Below, piece by piece: positions 1 through 38,820 of a stretch of DNA of 42,010 nucleotides (positions are counted from its first letter, which is position 1; each line of letters starts with the position of its first letter). The position numbers and the translations under genes are program-made. This DNA comes from a virus. The notes beneath the pieces are model-generated. The model was not told the DNA's origin, ran no database searches, and saw only the letters and a program-made list of their open reading frames with translations. Location: the IMG/VR virus record IMGVR_UViG_3300028800_000026, positions 1 through 42,010 of that record; one strand, given 5' to 3'.

Positions 1-127
1 GGATGAGCAGAGTGGGGTATTGAAAAGCGGTGGCGGTGATAAAGGAAATAAAACGCAAAACGGCGGATATGGCAAAGGATATGGATATATAAAACGAGAT
101 AGCCAAGGGTCTACGGGGGGAGCCTCC
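1..127. repeat. Terminal direct repeat, identical to 41884-42010 (contig self-overlap; circular or terminally redundant genome of 41,883 bp)
   Basis: Base-by-base comparison of 1-127 with 41884-42010 shows no mismatch. An ORF continues in frame across the junction. Confidence 0.97.
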
Positions 128-442
128 TGTTTCTTCTACTGCGCTAAAGCATCATCTCGAGAAAGAAATGAGGGGCTTCCCGAAGGTAAAAGGTCTACCC
201 ATCCCACAGTTAAGCCCATCAAACTCATGGAATACCTCATCAAGCTCGTTATGCCCCCAAAAGACGGCCTCCTCCTAGACCCCTTCGCAGGATCGGGAAC
301 CACAATTATAGCAGCCAAACGCCTTGGATTTAATGCAATTGGTATCGAGAAAGAACCACAATATTGCGAAATAGCTCGTTCTAGAATAATTAAACATTCA
401 GACACAGACGATCAAATGGAGCTTTTAAATGAAGATAAATAG
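1..442 (+). CDS. DNA methyltransferase, C-terminal part (continues from 41267-42010 across the contig junction; beta-class N6-adenine/N4-cytosine type)
   Basis: The track ORF 20-442 is in the same frame (41883 is divisible by 3) as the open frame that runs off the right end. It contains HPTVKP...LLLDPFAGSGTT (AdoMet motif I, FxGxG), which lies C-terminal to the DPPY motif in the other part. Confidence 0.85.
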   Translation, partial: DEQSGVLKSGGGDKGNKTQNGGYGKGYGYIKRDSQGSTGGASCFFYCAKASSRERNEGLPEGKRSTHPTVKPIKLMEYLIKLVMPPKDGLLLDPFAGSGTTIIAAKRLGFNAIGIEKEPQYCEIARSRIIKHSDTDDQMELLNEDK

Positions 443-7347: not shown

Positions 7348-8616
7348 TCATATTCTTCTAAACCCTCCCAACGTTTTCCCATCTGAATCCGGAACGTTCG
7401 TTACCTTGTGGGTCGCAATTGCGTAACGAAGAGCGTCGCAGGCGTGATCCATAATCCCTTTCCCCTTCATAGGCTCATCCTCCCCTTTTTCCGCCTTTTT
7501 TGCATCCCAAACATACCCTTCAATCTCTTTGATTAAGTTCTTGCACTCGTCGCAAATAACCAAATTCCCCTTATACATTTCAGACGCAACCTGTTGCAGC
7601 CCATAGGCTACGTCATTATTTGCATCAATGCAATGAATTCCTAGCCGAGAGAGGTCGAGCTTAAACGCGGCGCAGGATGGATCGACATACACTCCTTTAA
7701 TCGCATAGTCAGCTAAGAACTTTTGTACGTCTGCCGCATACTCGGAGTTGGTCTTTTGCCTGTTTGTGACAGCTGAGTTCCAGTAATATTCCTTCTCAAC
7801 CCACCATTTGCGGCCGGTGCCGTCGAATCTTCCGGTGTTGACCCCAATGAGGAGGCAACAAAATGGGGCCAGCGTCCCGTAATCGATAGACGCAATCCAA
7901 TATTCTGCAGCCTTGGGAGGCCGTCTAACGACGTGAAGCTTTGGATCAAAGAAGTCGTAAACCGCTCCTTCGGCCAGACACCATATACCTAGAATGTTTC
8001 GTTTGTAGAATAGGCCGCTCGAGGATCTCCGCATATCCTCTTTATATGACTCCTCCAGGAAGATGTTGTCATCCAACACAAAATGAAGAGCGTAATACTT
8101 AGGATCGGTCTCGGCCCTATCGATCCATTGCTTGCACTTGTGAGATGGTGCTTTAGGGTTCATGGCGGCATAGAGCTTGCTGTGAGGGCGCGACAGTCTA
8201 GTCTGGATCATGTCGATCACGATTTCAGGATAGAGGGTCATCTCGTCGCAATAGCAAAGATCGAGCGTTATTCCCTGGATCTTACCCAATGCTCCCTCGT
8301 CGCCCGCCCCTATACAAACGATTGTCTTCAATCCAAAGGTGAGAACGCCCTTGCTAGACCAATTGCACAGGGGACGAAACACCTTAAGCTCTTCGCTGTT
8401 GTAAAGGGGGGCAATCACATTGGTATAGACGCTGCCCATGCTATATCCAAAGATCGCAATGCTCTCGCCTGGAGACTCAAATGCCTGTTGCAAGAACTTA
8501 AATGTTGTACATACGGTTTTGCCCGTTCGCACCGCGCCGTGAGCGAGATTGTATTTAGCATCGGCCTCTTCAATAAACTGAATCTGCTTGGGGGAGAGGA
8601 GGGGTTCAAAAGTCAT
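7348..8616 (-). CDS. terL: terminase large subunit
   Basis: Walker A GAVRTGKT, a Walker B-like LCYCDE, and a C-terminal nuclease-like region (CIDANNDV...MDHACDALRY). Start set at ATG 8616, which has AGGAG 9 nt upstream. Confidence 0.85.
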   Translation of the reverse strand: MTFEPLLSPKQIQFIEEADAKYNLAHGAVRTGKTVCTTFKFLQQAFESPGESIAIFGYSMGSVYTNVIAPLYNSEELKVFRPLCNWSSKGVLTFGLKTIVCIGAGDEGALGKIQGITLDLCYCDEMTLYPEIVIDMIQTRLSRPHSKLYAAMNPKAPSHKCKQWIDRAETDPKYYALHFVLDDNIFLEESYKEDMRRSSSGLFYKRNILGIWCLAEGAVYDFFDPKLHVVRRPPKAAEYWIASIDYGTLAPFCCLLIGVNTGRFDGTGRKWWVEKEYYWNSAVTNRQKTNSEYAADVQKFLADYAIKGVYVDPSCAAFKLDLSRLGIHCIDANNDVAYGLQQVASEMYKGNLVICDECKNLIKEIEGYVWDAKKAEKGEDEPMKGKGIMDHACDALRYAIATHKVTNVPDSDGKTLGGFRRI

Positions 8617-8674
8617 TGGCGAGATCTCCTGTTTAGTGTACATAAAAAATTTTACGCACCAAATAGGGTATACC

Positions 8675-24978: not shown

Positions 24979-25530
24979 TCAGAATATTCCCGCTAATTTA
25001 CCGATTCCCATTCCGCCGAGAGAGCCCGCTGCCGTTCCCACCCCTCCGGCCAACGCAGGAAGTAATTCTTCCCACCATTTTTTCTGTTTTGGAAGAAATG
25101 CCGTGGTGTTCAAATCCTGTCCTATCAAATTCTGATATAACCCCATCAAATTCTGAATAGCCTGATTTTGTAATCCCATTCTATTCCCTTGCAATCTCTC
25201 GGCCAAATCAGTGGCCGCCCCTCCGACCGCATTCTGAAAGCCGCTAGACCTTCTGGCGCCCATTCCTGCGCCCGAGAACCTGGAAGCTATGTTGCCCTGG
25301 AGCTGACCGAATTGACGGATTGCAGGGGCTTCTAATTGCTTCCACTGTTCCTCGTTACCCCCAGCTCCCATTTGTAAGAGCTGCTGGAGGATGGCTGGGA
25401 ATCCTTGAGATAGAGCGTCTGCCCCTTGATTAAACAACCCCATCTGCTTAGGATCTCTATTGGACGCTGTAACTAGATTATAACCGCTCTTTCCCAAGGA
25501 AGAAACGGAACCTGTGGCAGGCATAGACAT
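24979..25530 (-). CDS. Gly/Gln/Ala-rich protein, possible internal virion protein
   Basis: Start moved to ATG 25530 (AAGAGG 5 nt upstream). Low-complexity G/Q/A/M-rich sequence. Confidence 0.55.
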   Translation of the reverse strand: MSMPATGSVSSLGKSGYNLVTASNRDPKQMGLFNQGADALSQGFPAILQQLLQMGAGGNEEQWKQLEAPAIRQFGQLQGNIASRFSGAGMGARRSSGFQNAVGGAATDLAERLQGNRMGLQNQAIQNLMGLYQNLIGQDLNTTAFLPKQKKWWEELLPALAGGVGTAAGSLGGMGIGKLAGIF

Positions 25531-25630
25531 ACGAACCTCTTTTATTTCCCCCATACCAAATTCATATTTACATTGTTATAAAAAAGAAAGGGTTGTCAGA
25601 AATTCGACCTACGCATTATCATGTATTTAT

Positions 25631-26866
25631 ATGAAACTTTACCCATATCAAAAAAAAATATTCGACGCAGCTATAGAGCATTACAAGCATCAAAACAATT
25701 TGATGATAGTCGTCCCTACTGGCGGAGGAAAAACCGTAATCCTCTCTCATTTGATTAAACATTTCAATCTAAGAACCTTAGTGGTCGCCCATACCAAAGA
25801 ATTAATTGACCAATGTAGGAACACTCTTTCTATACAAAACATTAAAAATGCAGAAGTTCGAACGATTCAATCATGCTATAGAGATGTAGACAAGTGGAGC
25901 GATTTTGATTTTTTAATTGTCGACGAATGCCATAGATCGTGCACAATATCTTATTTAAAATTGATTGAAAAATTTAATAAAAAAAAGATTTTGGGATTAA
26001 CGGCCACTCCTTTTCGGAGCGACGGACAAAAATTAGAGTATATTTTTGGAAAAAAAATATCTCCCCTCAACTTGATCGATATGATAGAAAATGGGTTGCT
26101 ATGCGACTTTGAGGGATACAGGGTGAAAACCAGTCAAAGTTTAAGAGGAATAAGCACCAAAAAAGGAGATTTCGTTTCTAGTAAGTTAGCGGCGGTCGTC
26201 AATGTTAAAAACAGAAATGAATTAATCGTGGGCGAATATAAAAATATTTCCCCAGGAGAAAAAGCTCTTTGTTTTTCCGTAAATATTAAACATGCAATTG
26301 ATTTGCAGAAAGAGTTTGAATTAAACGGAATTTCTGCTAAAGCAGTGCATGGAAAACTTTCTCGGGAAAATAGAATAGAATACATAGAACAGTTTAAGAA
26401 AGATAAAATAAAAGTTTTAATAAACTGCCAAATTCTAACAGAAGGGTTTGATGAACCATCTGTTACATGTTTATTAATGGCTCGTCCCACTCTATCTAAA
26501 GTTTTATATATGCAAATGATTGGAAGAGGTTCTCGAAATTTTCCAGGAAAGTCCACATGCAAAGTAATAGAATTTACAGATAATTCGTATAATGTATGCT
26601 CCTTGGACGATCTATTAGAAAAAAGTTCAAAGACGCATACTATAACAAGAGGAGAACGACTATCCAGATTCAGGAAAAGGATAAACGAATTATTGGATGA
26701 TTCAGGTGAATTAGTAGTTGAAAAATACAAGGTAGTTGAAAAACCGTTTGGCGAACGCGCCGCCACTCCTTGGCAAATTAATTTTATAAAAAAATTTAAT
26801 GTCGAATTTTCAGAAGATTTAACAGAATTGCAAGCTAACGAAATTATATCAAAAATAACAGGATAA
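25631..26866 (+). CDS. SF2 (DEAD/DEAH-type) helicase
   Basis: Motifs VPTGGGKT (I), DECH (II), TATP (III) and QMIGRGSR (VI). AT-rich gene on the opposite strand to its neighbours. Confidence 0.8.
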   Translation: MKLYPYQKKIFDAAIEHYKHQNNLMIVVPTGGGKTVILSHLIKHFNLRTLVVAHTKELIDQCRNTLSIQNIKNAEVRTIQSCYRDVDKWSDFDFLIVDECHRSCTISYLKLIEKFNKKKILGLTATPFRSDGQKLEYIFGKKISPLNLIDMIENGLLCDFEGYRVKTSQSLRGISTKKGDFVSSKLAAVVNVKNRNELIVGEYKNISPGEKALCFSVNIKHAIDLQKEFELNGISAKAVHGKLSRENRIEYIEQFKKDKIKVLINCQILTEGFDEPSVTCLLMARPTLSKVLYMQMIGRGSRNFPGKSTCKVIEFTDNSYNVCSLDDLLEKSSKTHTITRGERLSRFRKRINELLDDSGELVVEKYKVVEKPFGERAATPWQINFIKKFNVEFSEDLTELQANEIISKITG

Positions 26867-26867
26867 T

Positions 26868-28007
26868 ATGAGAAATCCGATTACTCTTGAACAAAGACAG
26901 ATTTTAGAAAAATTTAAAGATAGTTCATTGGATGCTAAAGAAATTGGGTTGCTATCCGGAATGTTTTATTCAACGGCTTCCGTAGAATACAAAAGAGGAG
27001 GAGGAAGAAGCAATTATAATGCTCAAATAGCGCATGAATTGTCTCAAAAAAGATTAGAAAAGATTAAAAAATCTCATGAGTCACGTAAATCCCCTCCCAA
27101 ATCCTTGGATTTGCAAACCAGAAAGTTGATAGAAAAATACAAGGATACCGAACTTTCAGGGGCTAAAATTGGAGAAAAAATTGGGAAGCATAAAAATGTT
27201 ATAAATAGAGAATTTAATCTTTTTAAAACCAGAGGAGAATATAATGCAGATTTAGCCCAAAAAATGAGAGATCAAAAAAAAGAAGAAGGGCATCAAAAAA
27301 TTAGAAAAAAAATTATTATCACAGAAAAAAGACCAGGAATAGAAGAACTGGATTTATCAAAAGAATTTATTGACTCTTTCAAAAATAAACAAATTTCAAA
27401 TGAAATTGAGAGTTCTAATGCATATAACTTACCCAAACTTACGTTAAATATTTGGATCGAACGATTTAAAGAAGAAGAAGCTCCTACCAGGAGAAATTGG
27501 AAAAAAGAGATTAGATATTTTGAATTTTGGAGTAAATATTTAGGAAATAAGATCGCTATTGATATTTCATCTAGAGAAATTGAAGAAGTTGCCGATATTA
27601 TTATGCAGCAACCTTCTAGACATAAAAAACAATTATCAAAAGAAACGAAAAGAAAATTCCTGTTATACCTCTCTTCTTTATATTCCACCGCTATTTATAA
27701 ATGGAAATGGGCCATATTCAATCCTTTGTCTTGTGTGGATAAAAAAAAGAGCAAGCAAAATTATATCCCTGATCAAACTCAAAATCAGTCTTCCATAGAA
27801 CTAAAGAAAAAATTTATATCTTTGGTTAAAAAATTTACATCTCTAGAAGATATTCCCTTGAGGAAGCAGGCTGAAAAGTGCGGCGTATCTCTATCTGTAT
27901 TTCAAAACGCCGTTTCACTCAGCTGTAATACTACGCTGAAAGTTTTCATGAAAATATGTGATAAATTTGGAGTGTCATTGGAGTTGGTGGAAACTGGTAA
28001 TAAATAA
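26868..28007 (+). CDS. multi-domain DNA-binding protein: two IS30-type HTH modules, an integrase-N-terminal (SAM-like) core-binding-like segment and a C-terminal XRE-like HTH. No catalytic domain.
   Basis: ITLEQRQILEKFKD..AKEIG...SNYNAQIAHELSQKR and LDLQTRKLIEKYKD..AKIGEKIGKHKNVINREFN...EYNADLAQKMR both resemble the IS30 transposase N-terminal HTH. ...ISSREIEEVADIIM...SKETKRKFLLYLSSLYSTAIYKWKWAIFNP resembles the core-binding domain. The end RKQAEKCGVSLSVFQNAVS is HTH-like. Confidence 0.55.
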   Translation: MRNPITLEQRQILEKFKDSSLDAKEIGLLSGMFYSTASVEYKRGGGRSNYNAQIAHELSQKRLEKIKKSHESRKSPPKSLDLQTRKLIEKYKDTELSGAKIGEKIGKHKNVINREFNLFKTRGEYNADLAQKMRDQKKEEGHQKIRKKIIITEKRPGIEELDLSKEFIDSFKNKQISNEIESSNAYNLPKLTLNIWIERFKEEEAPTRRNWKKEIRYFEFWSKYLGNKIAIDISSREIEEVADIIMQQPSRHKKQLSKETKRKFLLYLSSLYSTAIYKWKWAIFNPLSCVDKKKSKQNYIPDQTQNQSSIELKKKFISLVKKFTSLEDIPLRKQAEKCGVSLSVFQNAVSLSCNTTLKVFMKICDKFGVSLELVETGNK

Positions 28008-28519: not shown

Positions 28520-31500
28520 TTAACATAACAATTGAGATGGAGATACATCCAATATAAAAGAATGAAGTTCAATTTCAGAAAATTGATTACTAAAACTGGT
28601 GTCTCTCATCTGCTCCTCTGACAGGGTAAATCCGATCTGTACTGTATCTCCCAGCAAAGATGTATTCATCCGGTGCCATATTTGATTCTGTTGAGAAGCC
28701 GTGATCATCTGTAAGTTTATGTTCGCGGGAGTTAATCCCAGGTTCGTTGATTCAGGACATGTATAGAGAATAGCTGTGTAAACCAACGAATTATTTGAAT
28801 CAAACGGGTCGTTATAGGGAGAGGAAGCGTTCTGACTTAAATAGATAAGGAGGGTAATTTGCCCTCGAGCGGTTGTGGTGAAAAGATATTTTTGTGTCCC
28901 AATCCGGGTCTTTCTTCCCATTTCCCACGAGACCGGAAACTGTCTAGTCTGAATCATAGGGACGTACATTCGTTGGATAACTCCAAGTCCTAGATAGGTC
29001 CCTCCCGCAATAGGAGGAGAAAGAGTGAACGTATCTTGAGTGGGGTTGCTAACCGAAAAGATCTTCCCATTAACTTGAGCCCCTACCGTTCCTAGAGCCC
29101 CGCTGATGACGATATAATCTCCTTCATTCAAAGAATGGCCAGGGGATGTAACGAGAGAAAGTGCGCCAAAAGATTTTATATATTCCGAATTAGCTTCGTC
29201 CGTTCCATCTCCCAAGAACATAATGAAACCCTGAGAATTTCCTCCGATTACCTCGGGCTGTAGCAATGTAGATACGCCCGAGTCCCAAGGATCGTTCCAA
29301 GACTCCCAGGTTGGGTATATATCTCCAACCGTAGACCATGTTAATCCCGTCTGCCTTCTAAACGTCCCATAAGTCGTATAAGTCTCATTAAAGAGAGCCC
29401 AACTATTATTCCTGTAATTAAACAACAGGGTTTGATTAGGAAATGTTGCGATTGATTCGTTAGAACGGTAAGTAAAATAAATCCATTCGTTTATAAAATC
29501 CCTTTGCGCACACACTCTTTGCGACCCATTGCTCGTTAAGTTGAATTGAAAGATCTGGTCAGGAATAGGAAGATCGATCCTCTGGGATGCGGTTTGGCTC
29601 GTAATCACAATTCCTCTTCCTCCTACCGTGATCACTCCTCTATCTAATGTCACAGAACTAAAGGTGCTTTCCGAACCTAATTCAGTATTTATACTATAAA
29701 AATTGAATGGTATAATATCATTTCCTGAATAAATCAATCTAGTTTGTCTATTTTTAAATCCTACAATTAAAACATCTTCATTAAATCCGACAGTGGTGAT
29801 CGAACTTTGTATGCCCGCTTGGATGAACCCTCCGTATCCCGCTTCGTCTTCCCAAAATGCGCTAGGTTGAGCGGTTTGAGAGACAGGATTGGCAATTGAC
29901 CATCCAGGGGTCAATAAAGGGAGGTAAGTTTGAATGGGAGAGGGTGCTCCTGGCCACGAGGCGGTATAGTAAGGAACTCCATTTTGGCTATAGATGATCG
30001 TATCGGGAAGATAAACTTGACTCCCTGCGCTGGAAGTTTGAACTACGGGACCCAGGAATAAAATTCGATCCTTGTAGGGAACGATCATTCTGGCCCCTAC
30101 TAGATAATACTGTGAGGGGGGAAGATCGGAAATATTAAATATATTTGTAGGTCCAGAAATCAAGGGAGGACAGAAATTGACCCAACCATTTCCAGGAGTA
30201 GGCGTGTAAGGGGAAATGCCTATGGTCGGATCGCCATCATACCAACGCAGACAGTCTTTAGTTGCATCAGAATTATTCGTAAGGTACTGCAATATTCCAT
30301 TAGCATATGTTTGATTGGATATGGCAGCGTAGGGAAATCTCACCGTCAAAGTCGTGGTAGTCGTGTTATTAGAAACTGCCGATACAAAACCTGTTTGAAA
30401 ATTTACGGTATTACTATTTGTTCCAGTTACTTCATTTATGAAAACCCAGTCTCCAACAACCAAGCTTGCTACGGATTCAGTTATCGTAATTGTTAATTGC
30501 GTTGCGCTTACATAGGTAACAGAAGCGCACGGCTTGTACTGCATTCCTATATTGGTGGCGGAGAAAGGAGTTTGTATTCCATTTGTCACCCAGAAAGCTT
30601 GTTGGTAGTTAGTAGACCAAAATTGCTGATAATTTTGCCCATTCCACAGAGCCGGAGTCACCGTCGCCGGCGATTTTTGAGTATAAGTAATCGAAGTCCC
30701 CGCAAAAGTCCCGGTAGGAGGGTTTTTGTAAAAACTCACACTATAGGGCGTGTAAGGAACGGAAATAGGGACATTGTAAGAATAAACAGTATCGAATCCC
30801 AGAGTCCTCGTATCATCGGTGGTGTTCAGTTGAAGATCCTCTAGACCCATGACTGGAAGGGAAGGATAGTAGATAAATTGTTCCGTAATCGCCGTCGTCA
30901 ATAGAGGTGGAGAGGTTTGAAAAGTGACAGATCCTGTGGCATAGTTAATGGTCCCAGTTCCTCCCGCTCCATTGGATAAAACGCCAGTCCCATTGTCGGT
31001 GAAAACTTGCCCTCCGATGGTGATGCTGATGGAAGATGGAACGACCGATGCGTTTACTTGGTTCGTATTTTCCCATATTCCCCCTGACGTATAAACGCCG
31101 TAGAGAGTGGAATCTACACCAATCGTAAATGTATCTGCTCCAGTGACGGTTACTGTATAAGTAGCTCCATTGAGTTGAGTCATCCCTCCCACACCGGAAA
31201 TAAGAACATGATTCGTGGTTATGAGATTATGGGCGATGCTCGTGATAGAACATGGACTGGCATTCGTAGCCCCTGTTATATTTCCCTTTAATCCAATGGG
31301 AGAAAATACATTTCCTGAAAACGCCCCTGACCCGTCCGTCGTGCCTAAAGAAAGGGAAGAAACATTTCTTTGAAGTCTCCCGAGGGGCGAAGTTCCTCTC
31401 CGGCGCTTTATCCTTCCCCTCCATTGGTACGCATTAACTAGAGTAGGAAAAGAGTCATTATCTACGTTAAACGGGAGCACATCGTTTTTCAATCCTCCTG

Positions 31501-31531
31501 AAATCGGTCCCACAACGATTTTTTGGCTCAT
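28520..31531 (-). CDS. large virion/tail protein (1003 aa; nozzle or tubular-type role suspected)
   Basis: It is the largest ORF. The N-terminal pattern G..K.D..P....DSFP.L.NAY.WRGRI.RR.G resembles podovirus tail-hub proteins. It carries three copies of the beta-module described in the findings. Confidence 0.6.
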   Translation of the reverse strand: MSQKIVVGPISGGLKNDVLPFNVDNDSFPTLVNAYQWRGRIKRRRGTSPLGRLQRNVSSLSLGTTDGSGAFSGNVFSPIGLKGNITGATNASPCSITSIAHNLITTNHVLISGVGGMTQLNGATYTVTVTGADTFTIGVDSTLYGVYTSGGIWENTNQVNASVVPSSISITIGGQVFTDNGTGVLSNGAGGTGTINYATGSVTFQTSPPLLTTAITEQFIYYPSLPVMGLEDLQLNTTDDTRTLGFDTVYSYNVPISVPYTPYSVSFYKNPPTGTFAGTSITYTQKSPATVTPALWNGQNYQQFWSTNYQQAFWVTNGIQTPFSATNIGMQYKPCASVTYVSATQLTITITESVASLVVGDWVFINEVTGTNSNTVNFQTGFVSAVSNNTTTTTLTVRFPYAAISNQTYANGILQYLTNNSDATKDCLRWYDGDPTIGISPYTPTPGNGWVNFCPPLISGPTNIFNISDLPPSQYYLVGARMIVPYKDRILFLGPVVQTSSAGSQVYLPDTIIYSQNGVPYYTASWPGAPSPIQTYLPLLTPGWSIANPVSQTAQPSAFWEDEAGYGGFIQAGIQSSITTVGFNEDVLIVGFKNRQTRLIYSGNDIIPFNFYSINTELGSESTFSSVTLDRGVITVGGRGIVITSQTASQRIDLPIPDQIFQFNLTSNGSQRVCAQRDFINEWIYFTYRSNESIATFPNQTLLFNYRNNSWALFNETYTTYGTFRRQTGLTWSTVGDIYPTWESWNDPWDSGVSTLLQPEVIGGNSQGFIMFLGDGTDEANSEYIKSFGALSLVTSPGHSLNEGDYIVISGALGTVGAQVNGKIFSVSNPTQDTFTLSPPIAGGTYLGLGVIQRMYVPMIQTRQFPVSWEMGRKTRIGTQKYLFTTTARGQITLLIYLSQNASSPYNDPFDSNNSLVYTAILYTCPESTNLGLTPANINLQMITASQQNQIWHRMNTSLLGDTVQIGFTLSEEQMRDTSFSNQFSEIELHSFILDVSPSQLLC

Positions 31532-33930: not shown

Positions 33931-34356
33931 TCATTGTGGTGATATATTTTGAAATGAACCGGGGATCGCCGTGGTAGGGATAGATCTTCCGGTTGATGAG
34001 ATAACCCCTGAGTTGATATCTCCAACGGCCACTACCTGGGGGGGAGTGGGCCCGTAAGCGGGAGAAGAGACGAAGGGGTTAACATTAGTTGAATCGATAT
34101 CAATGGTTATCTGCGTTGCTGTGGGAACTGCAATCACATAACCGGAGAGTTCATTCAATTGATAAGATCCATAAGTGGGTTGTATTAACAATCGAACGAG
34201 CTGCCCTATGACATAGTTATGAGAAACAGAAGTGGTTACAATTGTGGTTGGTCCCAGTGAAATCGCTGAGATCACAAACCTAGACGGCTTATAATTCTGT
34301 GCCTTAATCGGAAGGTTATTATACGCAGGCGTAGGAGGACCGAAGTAGTTGCCCAT
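33931..34356 (-). CDS. small virion protein carrying one beta-module copy
   Basis: ISLGPTTIVTTSVSHNYVIGQLVRLLIQPTYGSYQLNELSGYVIAVPTATQITIDID. Confidence 0.6.
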   Translation of the reverse strand: MGNYFGPPTPAYNNLPIKAQNYKPSRFVISAISLGPTTIVTTSVSHNYVIGQLVRLLIQPTYGSYQLNELSGYVIAVPTATQITIDIDSTNVNPFVSSPAYGPTPPQVVAVGDINSGVISSTGRSIPTTAIPGSFQNISPQ

Positions 34357-34433
34357 AACTCTATTTCTATTTTTTCTCCCAATAACATTAATTGAATTAA
34401 TGTGATAGAGTGTCTTTGTTTTAAGGAGAGTAT

Positions 34434-35066
34434 ATGGAAGAAAGAGCCGAAGATATTAAGTACTTTTTAGATTATTTTGGTGGAATAGATAATCTTAAAT
34501 TGCTTCTAAATGAAGAGTTTTTTTTAAAAAATGATAAAATATATTCCAGATTAAAAGGAATTTTAATAGATTATTTTTTGAACAATAAAAATTGTGCGCA
34601 AATCGGAGAAGATCAGGAGGTAACCTCTAGCAGAATTAACCATCTCTTGAAAAAAGGACTGCGAGGCTTAAAGTCAATTTATGAAAAAGAAAAAGCCAAA
34701 AAAGAGATACTAGAACGGGGAATTCCTGATTTAAGCATACGAGAAATGAATCTCAGCTACTATACTGAAAATATATTGATTCGCTCTGGTTGCACGAATT
34801 TAAAGGATGTTTTGACTCTCACTCAAAAGAATTTTTTAAAAATTAGCGACTCCGGGAGACGGAATCTCCGAGAACTTCAGGAATGGCTAGACTCAAATGG
34901 ACTAGAAACACTTAAAGTTGGCAATGCTGACCCTAAGATTCGTAATTCAAAAAAAGACATGTGTAATTATATTATAAATATGTGCTCTGGAAAGACCTTC
35001 ACAAATGAAGAAGTTGATAAAATAGTTTGTTTTTTAAAATCTAGAGTAAAAACAGGGGACAACTAG
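34434..35066 (+). CDS. sigma region-4-like HTH fused to an RNA polymerase alpha C-terminal-domain-like (HhH) module
   Basis: ILIDYFLNNKNCAQIGEDQEVTSSRINHLLKKGLRGLK resembles sigma70 region 4.2. MNLSYYTENILIRSGCTNLKDVLTLTQKNFLKISDSGRRNLRELQEWLDSNGLE aligns by eye with E. coli RpoA [53 protein letters not shown]. Confidence 0.6.
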   Translation: MEERAEDIKYFLDYFGGIDNLKLLLNEEFFLKNDKIYSRLKGILIDYFLNNKNCAQIGEDQEVTSSRINHLLKKGLRGLKSIYEKEKAKKEILERGIPDLSIREMNLSYYTENILIRSGCTNLKDVLTLTQKNFLKISDSGRRNLRELQEWLDSNGLETLKVGNADPKIRNSKKDMCNYIINMCSGKTFTNEEVDKIVCFLKSRVKTGDN

Positions 35067-35082
35067 GGAATTCATTCCCTAG
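35063..35082. terminator. palindromic hairpin CTAGGGAA-ttca-TTCCCTAG at the stop codon of 34434-35066
   Basis: Perfect 8-9 bp palindrome with no T-run. Lies between convergent genes. Confidence 0.3.
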
Positions 35083-35153
35083 CGGCCCTGCGCCTCGACA
35101 TTTTAAGCCGACGACTTGATAGATGTTAACCTAGGCCATCTACCCATTTCAGA

Positions 35154-36293
35154 TTATGGAGAGCTAATATCATCGATAAAAGCTTCCCAGTATACAACGT
35201 CACTTGTACTTCCTGACAGATGTGAAGAAGTATCAGCAGAGGCTTGAAATACGGCATTACCCGACCCAATTATAAAACCCTGCCGTGTGTTATTAACGAA
35301 TGCACCTTGGATCGCAGGTCCATTAATCGTACTTACACCAGCCGAAAAGGTTGGGAAGACAGGACTTGGATACAATGCGCCACCGCTATACTGCACGCCG
35401 CCACTATTGATATCGCCTACGGCTAAAACTTGCGGGAACGAAAGCCCAGGAACACTAGCCACTGTTTGGTTAGTATTAAAGGCAGTCGCTGCGCTAGAAT
35501 TAGCGCTGCAAACGAATTGTGTATTGCTAGAGACCGAAGTCACATAGTAATAAACAGGCGAACCGGGAATTGAGTTGTTTGGAAGAGAATTGAGCTGAGT
35601 TGTCCCCCATGCGGCAGGAATTCTAAACGCAATCTCTTGACCTACAACAAAATTGTGATTCGTAGTAGTCGTTACAGTCGTTGTACTTCCAGTGGAAATA
35701 GCTTCAATGAAGTTTAGTCCTGGAAGATACAAAAAGGGGTAAAGCACTTTTTTAACGAATGCTCCCGCAGGAGAACCAGTTAAAGCAGTGTAATTGCTTC
35801 CACCGCCGGGCCATACGACCGAGAAGTGATCCGCATCCCCAACCGCACTAATGCGGAATGGCATACCAGAAATTTGAGGCATCCCAGTCGTCGCCGATTG
35901 GTATAATCCCTCAAACATCACTACATCCCCAACAGAATACCCGTGGGCAGTCACGTTAAAGACGATAGGATTGGCAGCGGTAGCACCGATGATCTGTTGC
36001 TGCGCACCAAATTGGAACATCAGCCCAGCACCAAACGTGCTAATACCATTGGAAGTAACAACAGCTGTAGTTAATACAGGTGTTCCGCCATTACAATAAT
36101 TGCAAATTGCAAATCCTTGCCCCATCGATACATCCCAGCTTGCGCTAGGGATCAAATGCTGGGTAAATGCCGCCGATGCGGTATAGTTATATAACTTCAC
36201 TCGAGTGGGTTGGAACGGCAGATAAATCGGCACGTTGTTCCCAGTAGCTGCAAGAGTATAGTTACCTTTCGCTGATCTTGAATATTCGCTCAT
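35154..36293 (-). CDS. virion protein with two beta-module copies, directly downstream of the capsid gene (decoration/head-fibre role suspected)
   Basis: Start at ATG 36293 (GGGAGG upstream, just after the MCP TAA). Module copies are ...ATAANPIVFNVTAHGYSVGDVVMFEGL... and ...STGSTTTVTTTTNHNFVVGQEIAFRIPAAWGTTQLN... Confidence 0.65.
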   Translation of the reverse strand: MSEYSRSAKGNYTLAATGNNVPIYLPFQPTRVKLYNYTASAAFTQHLIPSASWDVSMGQGFAICNYCNGGTPVLTTAVVTSNGISTFGAGLMFQFGAQQQIIGATAANPIVFNVTAHGYSVGDVVMFEGLYQSATTGMPQISGMPFRISAVGDADHFSVVWPGGGSNYTALTGSPAGAFVKKVLYPFLYLPGLNFIEAISTGSTTTVTTTTNHNFVVGQEIAFRIPAAWGTTQLNSLPNNSIPGSPVYYYVTSVSSNTQFVCSANSSAATAFNTNQTVASVPGLSFPQVLAVGDINSGGVQYSGGALYPSPVFPTFSAGVSTINGPAIQGAFVNNTRQGFIIGSGNAVFQASADTSSHLSGSTSDVVYWEAFIDDISSP

Positions 36294-36303
36294 GGTTCCT
36301 CCC

Positions 36304-36732
36304 TTATGCCGCAACAAAGTTACCGGCACGAGTCGAAAGCAAGTTTCGAATAGCCGTATCTTGAGTGAGCGCTTGGGCCTGTGCAAACTTCACAGCCAAG
36401 GTAGCATTTTGCGCAAGCATACCAGAATAATAAGGATCTCGATAAATTAGATTCATCGAATAGCCATCCTGGTTAATGTGCGTAATTGCTTGTTTTCCAA
36501 CAACCGTATTATAATAAACGTCTCTTCCGGAAGCCGATGACAATCTTGACACTGGCGCTTCAGAGCTCGTTAAAATACGGACGTTGTATACCGCGCCGTA
36601 CTCCGTTGGGAGTGCGTCGGTGTTGTGGCCATAATTCCATGTGGAAAGAAAGCCGCTACCTGTAAGCGAGTCGAAGTCAGGCTGAAGCTCAGTTGAACTC
36701 AGCATGAAATACGCCGAACGAACAGGACCTGT
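36304..36732 (-). CDS. MCP exon 4 (142 aa plus stop)
   Basis: TGPVRSAYFMLSSTELQPDFDSL...TEYGAVYNVRILTSSEAP...RDVYYNTVVGKQAITHI...LAVKFAQAQALTQDTAIRNLLSTRAGNFVAA. Confidence 0.85.
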   Translation of the reverse strand, partial: TGPVRSAYFMLSSTELQPDFDSLTGSGFLSTWNYGHNTDALPTEYGAVYNVRILTSSEAPVSRLSSASGRDVYYNTVVGKQAITHINQDGYSMNLIYRDPYYSGMLAQNATLAVKFAQAQALTQDTAIRNLLSTRAGNFVAA

Positions 36733-38820
36733 CAAATTCTATTACTTTTGTGACCTAGACTACAAACGTCTGGGCGGGGAAACCTCTTCGGATCTCCCTC
36801 TCATAGTTACCTATGAGTTTAGACTATCGCATCTCCGTTGCCATTCATCAAAATTAAGTGACGAATTAGCCCCATATTCTGGGATTGGAGTCTCAGGATT
36901 TAGTCGTTCAGGCTGATCTGTTTGTAAAAACGACATATCAAGTCCCTTCAGCCAACAACCACATTGCATGCAGTTTCCACCACATTTATAACAAATGCCG
37001 TCTGGCCCAGCTACTTCCATTATGTAATTCTTATCACACATCTCTTGCCCCTTGTTATCCTTCAGCCTATGCTGCAAGGAACTTCAAGTCAATTACCCAA
37101 GATTTTACTTCGGCACAAAGTTTACCGAATTTCAAACTACCTTCAATACCAGAAACGAATTTCTGAGCATTATTTGTATCAAGAGTTGCAGCCACAAGGC
37201 TAAAATCTGAGACGCCCAAATTTGTTGGGTTGTCTCCGTTTCCGCCACCGCCTGCATTGATTTCGGACGCTGCCGATACAATGTAGTCGCGGAGGATCAA
37301 ATCCTCTGCTTGGCGCATGGCTACAGCAAGACGCTCTGACACCCAGGCCAAAACACCTTCCTGATCTTGACATCATTGTTACTTAATGACTTAAGTCACT
37401 AGGTCTGGTCATTTCTGCCAGACTCTGCAATTTCATTTTATAGTTGCAGATCGGACTGTCGCATCACCTTTCGGCGTCCACTCACTCAGTCTCTCACGGT
37501 GACTTTCGTCTTCCGCCTTGTCACCCCATCGGGCTTCCAAGTCAATCAGAGCGGATTTTTAGCATTCAGTATAGCTGTAATATGCAGGATATGCTACAAT
37601 CCTTCACAAACATTCAACATAGGATTCATATGCATGATTTTTACGGAAAGGAGCTTTCTCAATATGAGGTTGGCTATCTTGCCGGGATTATGGACGGAGA
37701 AGGAACTATTCATATCTCCAGACCTATTTCTAGGGCTAAAGACTGTAAAAGTCCGATTTACCAAACTTATATAGCAGTCACCAATACTGACCAAGGCCTT
37801 CTTAATTGGCTTCAAGAAAGAATAGGAGGTATTATTCGATCCATCCCTATAGATAAAAAATCTGGAGTGGTTCGACGTCCCATTTGGAGATGGTATTGTC
37901 CTATTTGTCGTATCAAGAGTTTTTGCGAACTGCTTATTCCATATTCCGTTGTAAAAAGACGAGAGTTTGAGATTATGTATGAGATCAGAGGAACCTATCG
38001 CAATCAAGCAAAACCTGGAAAGCAAGGTGTCCAAAAAGTTCCTGATGAGGATATTTCTATTCGACATCGCTGTTACCTTGAACTTAAAGATCTTCATATA
38101 AGGCCAAATCTTCGTCATCCTAATCTACTACCTAAACGCGGTGAACCCACAAAATCCTAGGATCACCTGCTCGTTGATTCATTTTACGAGCACTTTATGC
38201 TGCACAATCTAAAATGCAGCCGGTTCCAAAAAACGCCATTTGCGCATCAATGATGTCGCGTTGTGGCACCTGTGCAGGAGGGTCAATCCCGCTATTTCCC
38301 AACTGTCTATCTGTTAACTACTTACGTTTAAGTAAGCCGAAAGCCTATTGCACTTTCGTCATTCAGTTTCCTGAATGTTCAGAGCACCGCATCTCTGATT
38401 TCCAGAGGCCAAAATCACATTTGCCTCCATATTCAGAGTCTTCTCGCTTGCTACGTTCAGGCTGACCATAGATTTCTAAAATTCTACCATTTTCATTCAT
38501 AATCCTTCTGGGAACTTCCAGGAGTATTTTTCTGAAATTATCTATTATTTTATCATCCACAGGCTTGCCCCTTCTTATCACCGTCTTTACGCTGCGACTT
38601 TGAAGTCTATCAGAGAAGATTTTACAACCACACATTTTATGGTTGGAGGAGTTAACGCCCTTGGACGCATAAAGCGGCAAGTCGTTCCCCCGTTCACTGG
38701 CATCGACACTTTGTCGCACACCAAAATATAGTTCATTGTGGGAGTCGGGGTATAAAGCATCGCAGGCGCGAGCGACTGCAATATCATTGGACCAAGGTTC
38801 CCAGTAGTAGTAATAGACAT
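36304..38820 (-). CDS. major capsid protein (HK97 fold), split gene: 4 exons and 3 group I introns. Spliced CDS is 954 nt = 317 aa.
   Basis: Exon translations match, in order, the pattern I recall for a common HK97-type capsid family (N4-gp56-type, assignment unverified): LL..A.P.LV...IP.N.GKTV.FRRY / L.EG.TP...V.A.V.QYG / D.VL.E...LLG.QA..TLD.I.RD...NA.KF...KFGT.P..AY / GE.G.LYGVRF..T.EA...DVY...V.G..A.G / ...AKIL. Confidence 0.85.
36733..37123 (-). mobile_element. group I intron C (391 nt)
   Basis: P1: exon TTCGGT (37124-37129) pairs with GCCGAA (37109-37114), with a U.G pair at the splice site. The last base is G (36733). GTAA-capped 7-bp hairpin at 36800-36817. The joined exons read ...SLKFG|TGPVRSAYF in frame. 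Confidence 0.8.
37124..37373 (-). CDS. MCP exon 3 (1 nt plus 83 codons)
   Basis: (I)CQDQEGVLAWVSERLAVAMRQAEDLILRDYI...TLDTNNAQKFVSGIEGSLKFG. The 5' boundary could instead be 37370. Confidence 0.8.
37374..38213 (-). mobile_element. group I intron B (840 nt) carrying an antisense LAGLIDADG gene
   Basis: P1: exon GCTGCAT (38214-38220) pairs with GTGCAGC (38199-38205), with a U.G pair at the splice site. The 3' end ...AAGTAACAATG resembles the ends of introns A and C. Homologous 7-bp hairpin at 37424-37450. Confidence 0.7.
37630..38160 (+). CDS. LAGLIDADG homing endonuclease, single-motif (homodimer-type), encoded antisense to its host intron
   Basis: YLAGIMDGEGTIHI lies about 15 aa after ATG 37630. 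About 176 aa, with no second LAGLIDADG motif. The track ORF extends to 37444; alternative ATG starts are at 37582 and 37591. Confidence 0.75.
   Translation: MHDFYGKELSQYEVGYLAGIMDGEGTIHISRPISRAKDCKSPIYQTYIAVTNTDQGLLNWLQERIGGIIRSIPIDKKSGVVRRPIWRWYCPICRIKSFCELLIPYSVVKRREFEIMYEIRGTYRNQAKPGKQGVQKVPDEDISIRHRCYLELKDLHIRPNLRHPNLLPKRGEPTKS
38214..38306 (-). CDS. MCP exon 2 (93-nt mini-exon: 1 nt + 30 codons + 2 nt)
   Basis: (I)QLGNSGIDPPAQVPQRDIIDAQMAFFGTGC(I) supplies the otherwise missing E-loop tip and return strand (compare L.EG.TP......V.A.V.QYG). It has no start codon, so it is absent from the ORF track. Confidence 0.7.
38307..38638 (-). mobile_element. group I intron A (332 nt)
   Basis: P1: exon CAACCAT (38639-38645) pairs with GTGGTTG (38625-38631), with a U.G pair at the splice site. 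GTAAAATCTT immediately follows, as in intron C. GAAA-capped 7-bp hairpin at 38360-38377. The last base is G (38307). Confidence 0.75.
38639..38820 (-). CDS. MCP exon 1 (60 codons + 2 nt)
   Basis: MSITTTGNLGPMILQSLAPAMLYTPTPTMNYILVCDKVSMPVNGGTTCRFMRPRALTPPT. AAAGGA lies 8 nt upstream of the ATG. Confidence 0.85.

Follow-up and report, generated by a model that had tools for sequence, protein, structure and literature searches.

The subject of this analysis is an open reading frame (ORF) at positions 34434-35066 of a 42,010 nt stretch of viral DNA (positions 1 to 42,010 of the IMG/VR record IMGVR_UViG_3300028800_000026), called here the window, which represents approximately the whole of a phage contig of about 42 kb. 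An earlier reading of the sequence (the original prediction) had described the ORF as an AT-rich plus-strand gene inserted between minus-strand virion genes, and its composition and surroundings agree with this description. The GC content of the ORF is 31.8 % (28 % at third codon positions), compared to 43-47 % for the flanking minus-strand genes, to both of which it is antisense, and 42.9 % for the whole window. Both sides of the ORF are probably occupied by virion genes. To the right of the ORF, 36304-36735 encodes a fragment of a major head protein, and both 35154-36386 and 28520-31531 have weak matches to 'major tail protein' in PHROG, but no match was found for the left neighbour, 33931-34356. 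The products of 33931-34356 (minus strand, 141 aa) and 35154-36386 (minus strand, 410 aa) have a paralogous domain and the C-terminal motif ..PQV.AVGDINSG.. in common and, hence, the virion genes on either side of the ORF are related to each other.

Sigma region 4 and alpha-CTD folds in a single protein

It is established that the protein encoded by the ORF comprises a sigma region 4 (sigma4) fold and the fold of the C-terminal domain (CTD) of RpoA, the alpha subunit of RNA polymerase (RNAP), and both resemblances are much more than chance. The original prediction had seen the alpha-CTD by eye in the C-terminal half of the protein, and this assignment is solid. The Pfam family RNA_pol_A_CTD (PF03118) matches residues 95-152 with 26.8 bits against a gathering score of 23.8 (E 4.3e-6), and the alpha-CTD part of a hidden Markov model (HMM) built exclusively from other members of the family described below matches residues 100-158 with E 8e-20. 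A phmmer search of PDB sequences found the RpoA CTDs of C. difficile and B. subtilis, with E values down to 9e-6, and eight rpoA models from NCBIfam align through the last 70-80 positions only, with scores far under their cut-offs. The whole protein was modelled with AlphaFold2 from a 12-sequence family alignment (mean predicted local distance difference test score, pLDDT, of 84), and in Foldseek the modelled domain superposes on the alpha-CTDs in 3gfk_B, 1lb2_E, 1z3e_B and 8y5t_A2 at 0.6-1.5 Å over 59-63 residues, with target template modelling (TM) scores of 0.75-0.87. Among the alpha-CTDs nearest to it in sequence and structure is the Spx-bound one of B. subtilis (3gfk, 1z3e).

A sigma region 4-like middle part had also been proposed. 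The Pfam match to Sigma70_r4 (PF04545) at residues 41-80 is sub-threshold when the protein is examined alone (16.9 bits where 24.1 are required, E 0.0044), but the assignment is secure via the relatives of the protein and is borne out by family HMM, profile-profile and structural matches. A sigma4 HMM built from the other family members only matches residues 35-80 with E 6e-11, and when a profile of the protein and its single ortholog was compared to 12 other members using hhalign, one collinear match covering residues 33-163 was obtained (99.5 %, E 3e-23). When residues 1-98 were modelled separately (pLDDT 89), the top Foldseek matches were nearly all sigma4 domains, among them those of SigF, WhiG, SigD4, SigL4 and the sigmaA region 4 in 1rio, with probabilities of 0.9-1.0 and TM scores of 0.62-0.77 over 58-70 residues. 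Profile and structure searches therefore returned matches to both of the domains that the original prediction had named.

Three other identities were considered and rejected. The dimerisation and assembly domains that form the N-terminal part of alpha (PF01000, PF01193) had no matches in the protein in either Pfam or NCBIfam and, as nothing of this kind precedes the CTD, the protein is not RpoA and not an RNAP subunit. No match to Sigma70_r2 was found in the protein, in eight viral members of its family or in the other ORFs of the phage and, lacking sigma region 2, the protein cannot be a full sigma factor. A free-standing homing endonuclease was rejected because no GIY-YIG, HNH or LAGLIDADG nuclease domain was found in the protein by Pfam, PHROGs or NCBIfam at E values up to 10.

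The remaining parts of the protein (Table 1) are an N-terminal segment and a C-terminal tail that are specific to its clade, and a linker between the two recognisable domains. In the models, the helix-turn-helix (HTH) occupies residues 38-61 and is followed by a single helix (65-95) formed by the recognition helix together with the linker, which, at 19 residues, lies at the short end of the range found in the family (14-206). Residues 162-173, between the alpha-CTD and the tail, are modelled as disordered. Neither the N-terminal segment nor the tail had a Pfam match at E values up to 10, and their matches in the PDB were at chance level only; the tail has a weak match to a PHROG 'HTH DNA binding protein' (E 0.011).

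Table 1. Features of the ORF, its product and the adjacent signals, in window positions
Feature	Residues	Positions	Strand	Basis or description
Fusion-protein ORF	1-210	34434-35066	+	ATG to TAG, 210 aa; translation contains the peptides quoted in the original prediction
Clade-specific N-terminal segment	1-36	34434-34541	+	Three short helices (modelled at 8-31) packing on the HTH; AlphaFold2 pLDDT >90
Sigma-70 region 4-like HTH (regions 4.1 and 4.2)	37-80	34542-34673	+	Pfam (sub-threshold), family HMM, hhalign, Foldseek
Linker, 19 residues	81-99	34674-34730	+	Modelled as a continuation of the recognition helix
Alpha-CTD-like helix-hairpin-helix domain	100-158	34731-34907	+	Pfam PF03118, Foldseek, family HMM
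Clade-specific two-helix C-terminal tail	175-208	34956-35057	+	Helices 169-184 and 191-206, pLDDT ~80
Predicted sigma70/sigmaA-type extended -10 promoter of the ORF		34382-34411	+	Sequence reading and conservation in L001
Shine-Dalgarno sequence AAGGAGAG		34423-34430	+	3 nt upstream of the ATG, read from the sequence
Predicted intrinsic terminator		35048-35090	-	Two-tier stem at 35053-35090, then UUUUU at 35048-35052

A family of phage proteins and its DNA-contact residues

The original prediction knew of no characterised phage factor with this architecture, and we found none either; however, the protein does not stand alone. An exhaustive HMMER search of 1.84 billion protein representatives recovered proteins of 150-220 aa in which a textbook region 4.2 (e.g. 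'...TRERVRQIEAKALRKLRHPSR') is followed by an alpha-CTD. Among 12 family proteins that were aligned, RNA_pol_A_CTD was present in all 12 and Sigma70_r4 in 11 (E 0.01 or better, the best being 6e-18), and the family profile matches both the RpoA CTD (E 1e-26) and region 4 of the housekeeping sigma factors SigA/RpoD (E 6e-17). Both family sub-HMMs match the window protein, in the right order, and it is collinear with the other members. Hence, uncultured phages and mobile elements have a large and uncharacterised family of sigma4 plus alpha-CTD proteins, to which the window protein belongs as a diverged member.

When the 83 representatives that match the window protein were sorted by architecture, 17 had the order sigma4-alpha-CTD, nine had sigma4 followed by two alpha-CTDs, 12 had two to four alpha-CTDs ahead of sigma4, and 35 were pure arrays of 2-12 alpha-CTDs. 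Ten large proteins were examined with Pfam and all had multiple significant RNA_pol_A_CTD matches, with Sigma70_r4 in eight of them and missing from P0014 (three alpha-CTD matches) and P0003 (six); besides overlapping helix-hairpin-helix families, no further domain was recognised by Pfam in these proteins. Over the series P0003-P0083, tandem arrays of 2-12 alpha-CTDs were seen, which in proteins of 500-1170 aa occur together with a sigma4 HTH in either order.

A pattern scan of IMG/VR with a 6-sequence family alignment identified 45 viral loci with alpha-CTD modules, and eight of these encode sigma4 plus alpha-CTD proteins of 212-357 aa, some of them on contigs of 250 and 394 kb; scans of IMG/VR with the single proteins P0021, P0042 and P0061 gave no matches. 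The remaining loci encode stand-alone alpha-CTD proteins of 77-200 aa (L012-L049, e.g. 6037-6312 in L013 and 6013-6288 in L017), one of which, a 91 aa protein, recurs on at least 10 different contigs. No study of stand-alone phage alpha-CTD proteins was found. Additional HTHs are present in some of the viral members, namely an N-terminal Cro/CI-type HTH_3 in L009 and HTH_17 in L011 and L046. The IMG/VR family genes are co-oriented with runs of small genes and have an ordinary GC content, and two members from other assemblies adjoin YopX/DUF1064 genes and DarA_C/DUF4314/HTH_17 genes, respectively, neighbourhoods that are typical of early or accessory regions in phage and mobile-element genomes. 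The PHROG matches of the genes next to L005 and L009 were either of unknown function or weak and of the replication type.

In BFVD, the best viral structural matches were small proteins labelled 'RNA polymerase, alpha subunit, C-terminal [uncultured Caudovirales phage]' and a protein of Rhodococcus phage Finch. Among cultured phages, tblastn with P0021 found only rpoD- or rpoA-like pieces, none covering 80 % of the query, and the records that include them appear to be contaminated or host-derived. No solved structure contains a sigma4/alpha-CTD fusion, and neither a natural fusion of this type nor phage alpha-CTD-like proteins were found in the literature, subscription journals being mostly outside the scope of that search.

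In order to map the residues that contact DNA, the C-termini of E. coli RpoD and RpoA were used as rulers, with what we take to be their sequences and residue numbering. All 13 sigma and all 14 alpha marker positions fell on the expected ruler residue, which supports the numbering. At the positions with which sigma70 contacts the -35 hexamer (R584, E585, R586, R588, Q589), the canonical R-E-R-R-Q is exact in P0021, P0061, P0079, L007 and L011 and near-exact in several others, but the window protein has S-S-R-N-H and its ortholog, P0002, has G-S-R-N-N. At the DNA-binding determinant of the alpha-CTD (R265, N268, G296, K298, S299), P0002 has R-N-G-K-S and the window protein Y-N-G-R-N. Arg265 is present in 18 of 22 family members, with N268, G296, K298 and S299 mostly kept, and a Tyr at 265 is also found in P0046, so that this replacement is recurrent and not an isolated defect. 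The window protein retains R554, R586, K593 and R596 of sigma and, in the alpha-CTD, N268, G296, E302 and a basic residue at 298, but the 261 and 287 determinants are not conserved.

Signals around the ORF, the sister phage and other features of the window

The sister phage L001 (IMGVR_UViG_3300050821_013652, 41,991 bp) is syntenic with the window and includes an ortholog of the ORF, P0002 (203 aa), in the same slot and orientation and with a similarly distinct composition (34 % GC versus 42 % in its surroundings). The flanking virion proteins of the two phages are 66-82 % identical and the ORF products 46-48 %. The term 'inserted' in the original prediction, if read as a recent insertion, is not upheld, as a gene that has its counterpart in this position in L001 and has diverged to 48 % identity cannot be a recent arrival. 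L001, the only relative found, carries the ORF, and no relative that lacks it was found. Comparison of the ORF with P0002 gave a proportion of nonsynonymous differences (pN) of 0.35 and of synonymous differences (pS) of 0.74, with synonymous sites saturated, and pN for the neighbouring genes was 0.13-0.22, which indicates that the ORF is under purifying selection and evolves about twice as fast as its neighbours. The gene has therefore been established in this lineage for a long time and has signals of its own. When the parts of the protein were compared to P0002 individually, identity was 65 % in the tail, 61 % in sigma4, 44 % in the N-terminal segment, 36 % in the alpha-CTD and 26 % in the linker, and the conservation of the tail suggests that it has an additional partner. 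No ortholog beyond the one in L001 was found in GTDB genomes or JGI metagenomes, and a word-index protein search with the ORF product returned only the protein itself.

The predicted promoter of the ORF consists of a -35-like ATAACA (34382-34387), an 18 bp spacer, a TG at 34403-34404 and the -10 hexamer TAGAGT at 34406-34411 (TGaTAGAGT). It matches the consensus hexamers at 8 of 12 positions, which is under the threshold of the promoter scanner, and it is overlapped by a near-perfect palindrome, ATAACATTAATT/AATTAATGTGAT, at 34382-34406. The spacer that separates the ORF from the divergent gene upstream is 77 bp long in the window and 44 bp in L001, and a block, AATAACATTAATT..TTAAT.TG.TAGA, is shared between the two (TGcTAGAAT in L001) amid sequence that has otherwise diverged. 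We infer that this conserved block is an extended -10 promoter for the host RNAP. The Shine-Dalgarno sequence of the window is absent from L001, where the ATG lies 4 nt past the -10 hexamer, and the mRNA of the L001 ortholog may be leaderless.

At its other end, the ORF meets the predicted minus-strand terminator (Table 1), which overlaps the ORF stop codon and has a folding energy of -24.1 kcal/mol (z -2.7, RNA fold). A structure in the same place in L001 (about 8590-8640, minus strand) reaches -31.0 kcal/mol (z -4.7) and, there, the sequence of the inner stem differs but the pairing is kept. This terminator is predicted to end the capsid-side virion transcript, which is convergent with the ORF, at the 3' end of the ORF. 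As regards the features of a moron, an accessory phage gene of odd composition with a promoter and a terminator of its own, the composition of the ORF is clearly deviant and a promoter-like element is conserved, the strong conserved terminator is on the opposite strand, and the hairpin on the plus strand is not followed by a U-run. With this terminator at the ORF, the minus-strand virion genes fall into two units, and transcription of those to the left of it could involve read-through or antitermination, or a promoter in the 77 bp spacer.

The early genes of the phage form a lambdoid-style set (Cro/CI HTHs, replication protein O, ERF, YqaJ and RusA), and a P22-type portal and a large terminase are also encoded. 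No tRNA genes were found in the window, and neither an RNAP nor a sigma region 2 was found among the other ORFs of the phage. When GenBank phages were searched, there was no DNA match to the window and no significant protein match to the ORF. The portal had no match among cultured phages, and the best match to the large terminase subunit, TerL, is ~36 % identical, with TerL matches scattered across many host phyla.

Several further features were seen elsewhere in the window. At its left end, 20-442 (plus strand) aligns to the N6_N4_Mtase DNA methylase family through the C-terminal part of that family alone (positions 159-220 of a 221-position profile), and this gene is probably cut off by the start of the window or contig. 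A second AT-rich plus-strand island is present within the minus-strand virion module at 25514-28007 and consists of a 450 aa ResIII/Helicase_C helicase (GC 33 %) and a 379 aa orphan (GC 31 %). In PADLOC, the helicase best matches the corresponding part of type IV methyl-directed restriction enzymes (E 1.6e-31), the island is entirely missing from L001, and the phage may carry it as a cassette for defence or counter-defence. Between 36300 and 39500, the major capsid gene, which is on the minus strand, seems to be in fragments. The piece at 36304-36735 aligns to only the C-terminal third of the major-head-protein PHROG, further pieces are found at 36811-37077, 37067-37351 and 38363-38719 (all minus strand), and among them, at 37444-38160 on the plus strand, lies an ORF with a LAGLIDADG motif (PHROG 'HNH endonuclease', E 5e-15). 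A 29 nt segment identical to window 38437-38465 is present three times in L001 (capsid region L001 10100-13200). The capsid gene may contain introns or other mobile insertions, but no intron was detected with Rfam.

Possible action on host transcription

We propose that the protein may be a small transcription regulator made up of a sigma4 HTH, a helical linker, an alpha-CTD and a tail found only in its clade. As the phage encodes no RNAP, its action would fall on transcription that depends on the host RNAP. In the holoenzyme, sigma4 on the -35 hexamer and the alpha-CTD on the proximal UP subsite are adjacent and touch one another, and the Foldseek matches include 3n97, in which separate alpha-CTD and sigma4 chains lie on adjacent UP and -35 DNA. 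The protein would sit on DNA in the upstream part of promoters, where these two domains of the holoenzyme stand side by side, and, once bound, would alter which promoters the host RNAP can use. In the simplest form, it would occupy the -35/UP region and block promoters that depend on it, and extended -10 promoters, such as its own, would escape; an activating role is equally possible in principle. Intact contact sets in many relatives, extra HTHs and tandem alpha-CTDs would all fit a bipartite reader of promoter-upstream DNA, and the tandem arrays and the pairing with sigma4 in both orders fit a DNA-binding module. In the clade represented by the window protein, the recognition helix would have been re-specified for a phage-specific target and, given the changes in this helix and the loss of Arg265, that target should be something other than TTGACA plus an A-tract. 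The host RNAP would transcribe the gene from the gene's own extended -10 promoter, and the conserved terminator would shield it from the convergent virion transcript.

We assign a probability of roughly 0.4 to the reading that the protein is a DNA-bound regulator of host RNAP promoters. We infer its DNA binding, its target sites, the direction of its effect and the timing of its expression from the domains, residues and signals described above. The original prediction had invoked recognition of both the -35 and the UP element, and this fits the relatives; the -35 residues and Arg265 are replaced in the window protein, and plain -35 plus UP recognition therefore fits the relatives better than the window protein itself. 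Its broader suggestion, that the protein could redirect or block the host RNAP, is a plausible idea that, for the window protein, is weakened by the absence of the canonical DNA contacts. Other observations weigh against a DNA-bound regulator. Only R586 and R554 are left of the -35 contact set and Arg265 has become Tyr, and these losses make DNA binding by either module uncertain for the window protein. The 12-mer conserved upstream of the ORF occurs in the phage genome about as often as expected (10 matches versus 9.1), and no k-mer of at least 11 recurs in three or more of its intergenic regions. None of the Foldseek E values for the sigma4 domain is better than 0.17, which is weak, and the structural match therefore supports this assignment but does not prove it. 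The best-conserved part of the protein is the orphan tail (65 %) and the alpha-CTD is the less conserved of the folded domains (36 %), a hint that contacts with other proteins may be of greater importance here.

Loss of most of the base contacts of sigma 4.2 and of Arg265, with both folds kept at high model confidence, is also what a protein that binds RNAP and acts without binding DNA could look like. Such an appropriator or decoy would re-wire or inhibit host transcription, with the sigma4-like domain docking on the beta-flap or drawing away proteins that bind sigma4, the alpha-CTD-like domain soaking up activators, Spx-like regulators or NusA, and the tail adding a protein contact. The conservation of the orphan tail and the proximity of the alpha-CTD to the Spx-bound one of B. 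subtilis (3gfk, 1z3e) would suit it. However, most family members retain the DNA-contact residues of both modules, what the relatives have gained is DNA-binding HTHs or alpha-CTD arrays and not known protein-binding modules, and even the window protein retains N268, G296 and a basic residue at 298; we consider this explanation unlikely, though it deserves to be kept in mind. It is improbable, in our estimation, that the protein is instead a dedicated activator of the left-hand virion operon, binding the palindromic block at 34382-34406, where it would autoregulate its own promoter and, once the capsid-side transcript has ended at the terminator, set late transcription going again for 33931-34356 and the genes that follow. 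The presence of a conserved minus-strand terminator just right of the ORF does mean that the left-hand genes need read-through or a new promoter, a 13 bp block is identical in both phages in an otherwise diverged spacer and forms a near-perfect palindrome in the window, and sigma4-like late activators are known from phages (the RinA family, PMC3152322). Yet the conserved block is adequately explained as the -35 side and extended -10 of the ORF's own promoter, the palindrome is imperfect in L001 (right arm about 7/12), where the spacer is a mere 44 bp, the motif is not found elsewhere beyond chance (10 matches versus 9 expected), and the other family members do not lie beside virion operons.

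The location of an AT-rich gene on the opposite strand between conserved virion genes could also be that of selfish or accessory cargo with no role in transcription, for example the DNA-binding part left over from a free-standing homing endonuclease, or a nucleoid-type helix-hairpin-helix protein that binds DNA generically and is carried as a moron. The same phage has a LAGLIDADG-motif ORF near its capsid gene and a second AT-rich island that is missing from the sister phage, and alpha-CTD modules behave as generic repeat modules elsewhere. Even so, we regard cargo as very improbable, because neither a nuclease domain nor a NUMOD-type match was found in the protein at E values up to 10 (Pfam, PHROGs, NCBIfam), PADLOC did not match the ORF to a defence system, the gene has a counterpart at this location in L001, 48 % identical and under purifying selection, and the recurrent pairing with a region 4 derived from housekeeping sigma factors points to promoters.

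A wider and more tentative proposal, which we hold to be doubtful as it stands, is that phages have repeatedly built single-chain proteins from sigma4 and one or more alpha-CTDs that compete with or steer the host RNAP at -35/UP-type DNA, a class of transcription hijackers that would mimic its DNA-reading heads and not bind to them, the window protein being a member that was re-specified, by a new recognition helix and the tail, to a phage-specific target. A natural single chain of this type would, if the proposal is true, represent a different principle, namely imitation of the promoter-reading heads themselves. Members of the family are common in uncultured phages, jumbo-phage contigs among them, and have 1 to 12 alpha-CTDs and, in some cases, an additional HTH; as small proteins that are easy to purify, they would allow the idea to be tested directly. 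The architecture is already present in public data, where automatic pipelines usually label its members 'DNA-directed RNA polymerase subunit alpha', a name that is misleading for phage annotation.

Known phage strategies against host transcription are to modify or bind RNAP subunits (AsiA, gp67, Alt/ModA, P7 and gp2) or to supply whole sigma factors. AsiA and gp67 bind region 4 of the host sigma factor and are unrelated in sequence or fold to sigma4 or the alpha-CTD, and AsiA of T4, together with MotA, acts on the -35/UP recognition step of the host RNAP. The gp67 protein of S. aureus phage G1 acts on this step too (PMC3694059). Under the proposed mechanism, the ORF protein would have the same effect as AsiA and gp67, in that promoters that depend on the -35 or UP sequences would be selectively lost and extended -10 promoters would continue to work. 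However, the ORF protein is built from copies of RNAP modules, and no homology to AsiA or gp67 was found. The late activators of the RinA/ArpU type are likewise small phage proteins with a sigma4-type HTH, and they control transcription of virion genes by the host RNAP (PMC3152322). They lack an alpha-CTD module, and no RinA/ArpU match to the ORF protein was found in Pfam, PHROG or NCBIfam scans.

When compared to the cellular proteins, the alpha-CTD of the ORF protein has the same fold as that of RpoA (PF03118; 1lb2, 3gfk, 3n97), with a sequence match above the Pfam cut-off, but its fusion partners are an HTH and an orphan tail and not the alpha N-terminal dimerisation domain. Similarly, its HTH has the fold of region 4 of housekeeping sigma-70 factors (PF04545) and is in register with 4.1 and 4.2 but, as regions 1-3 are lacking, the protein cannot open promoters. 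The closest counterparts are the uncharacterised phage sigma4 plus alpha-CTD proteins (P0021, P0042, P0046, L005 and L007), which have the same domain order and are also phage-borne. The clade that includes the window protein differs from them in sharing only ~25 % identity, in its short linker, changed contacts, extra N-terminal helices and conserved tail, and in the location of the gene, which in the window is antisense inside the virion module, whereas those of the relatives are found among small early genes.

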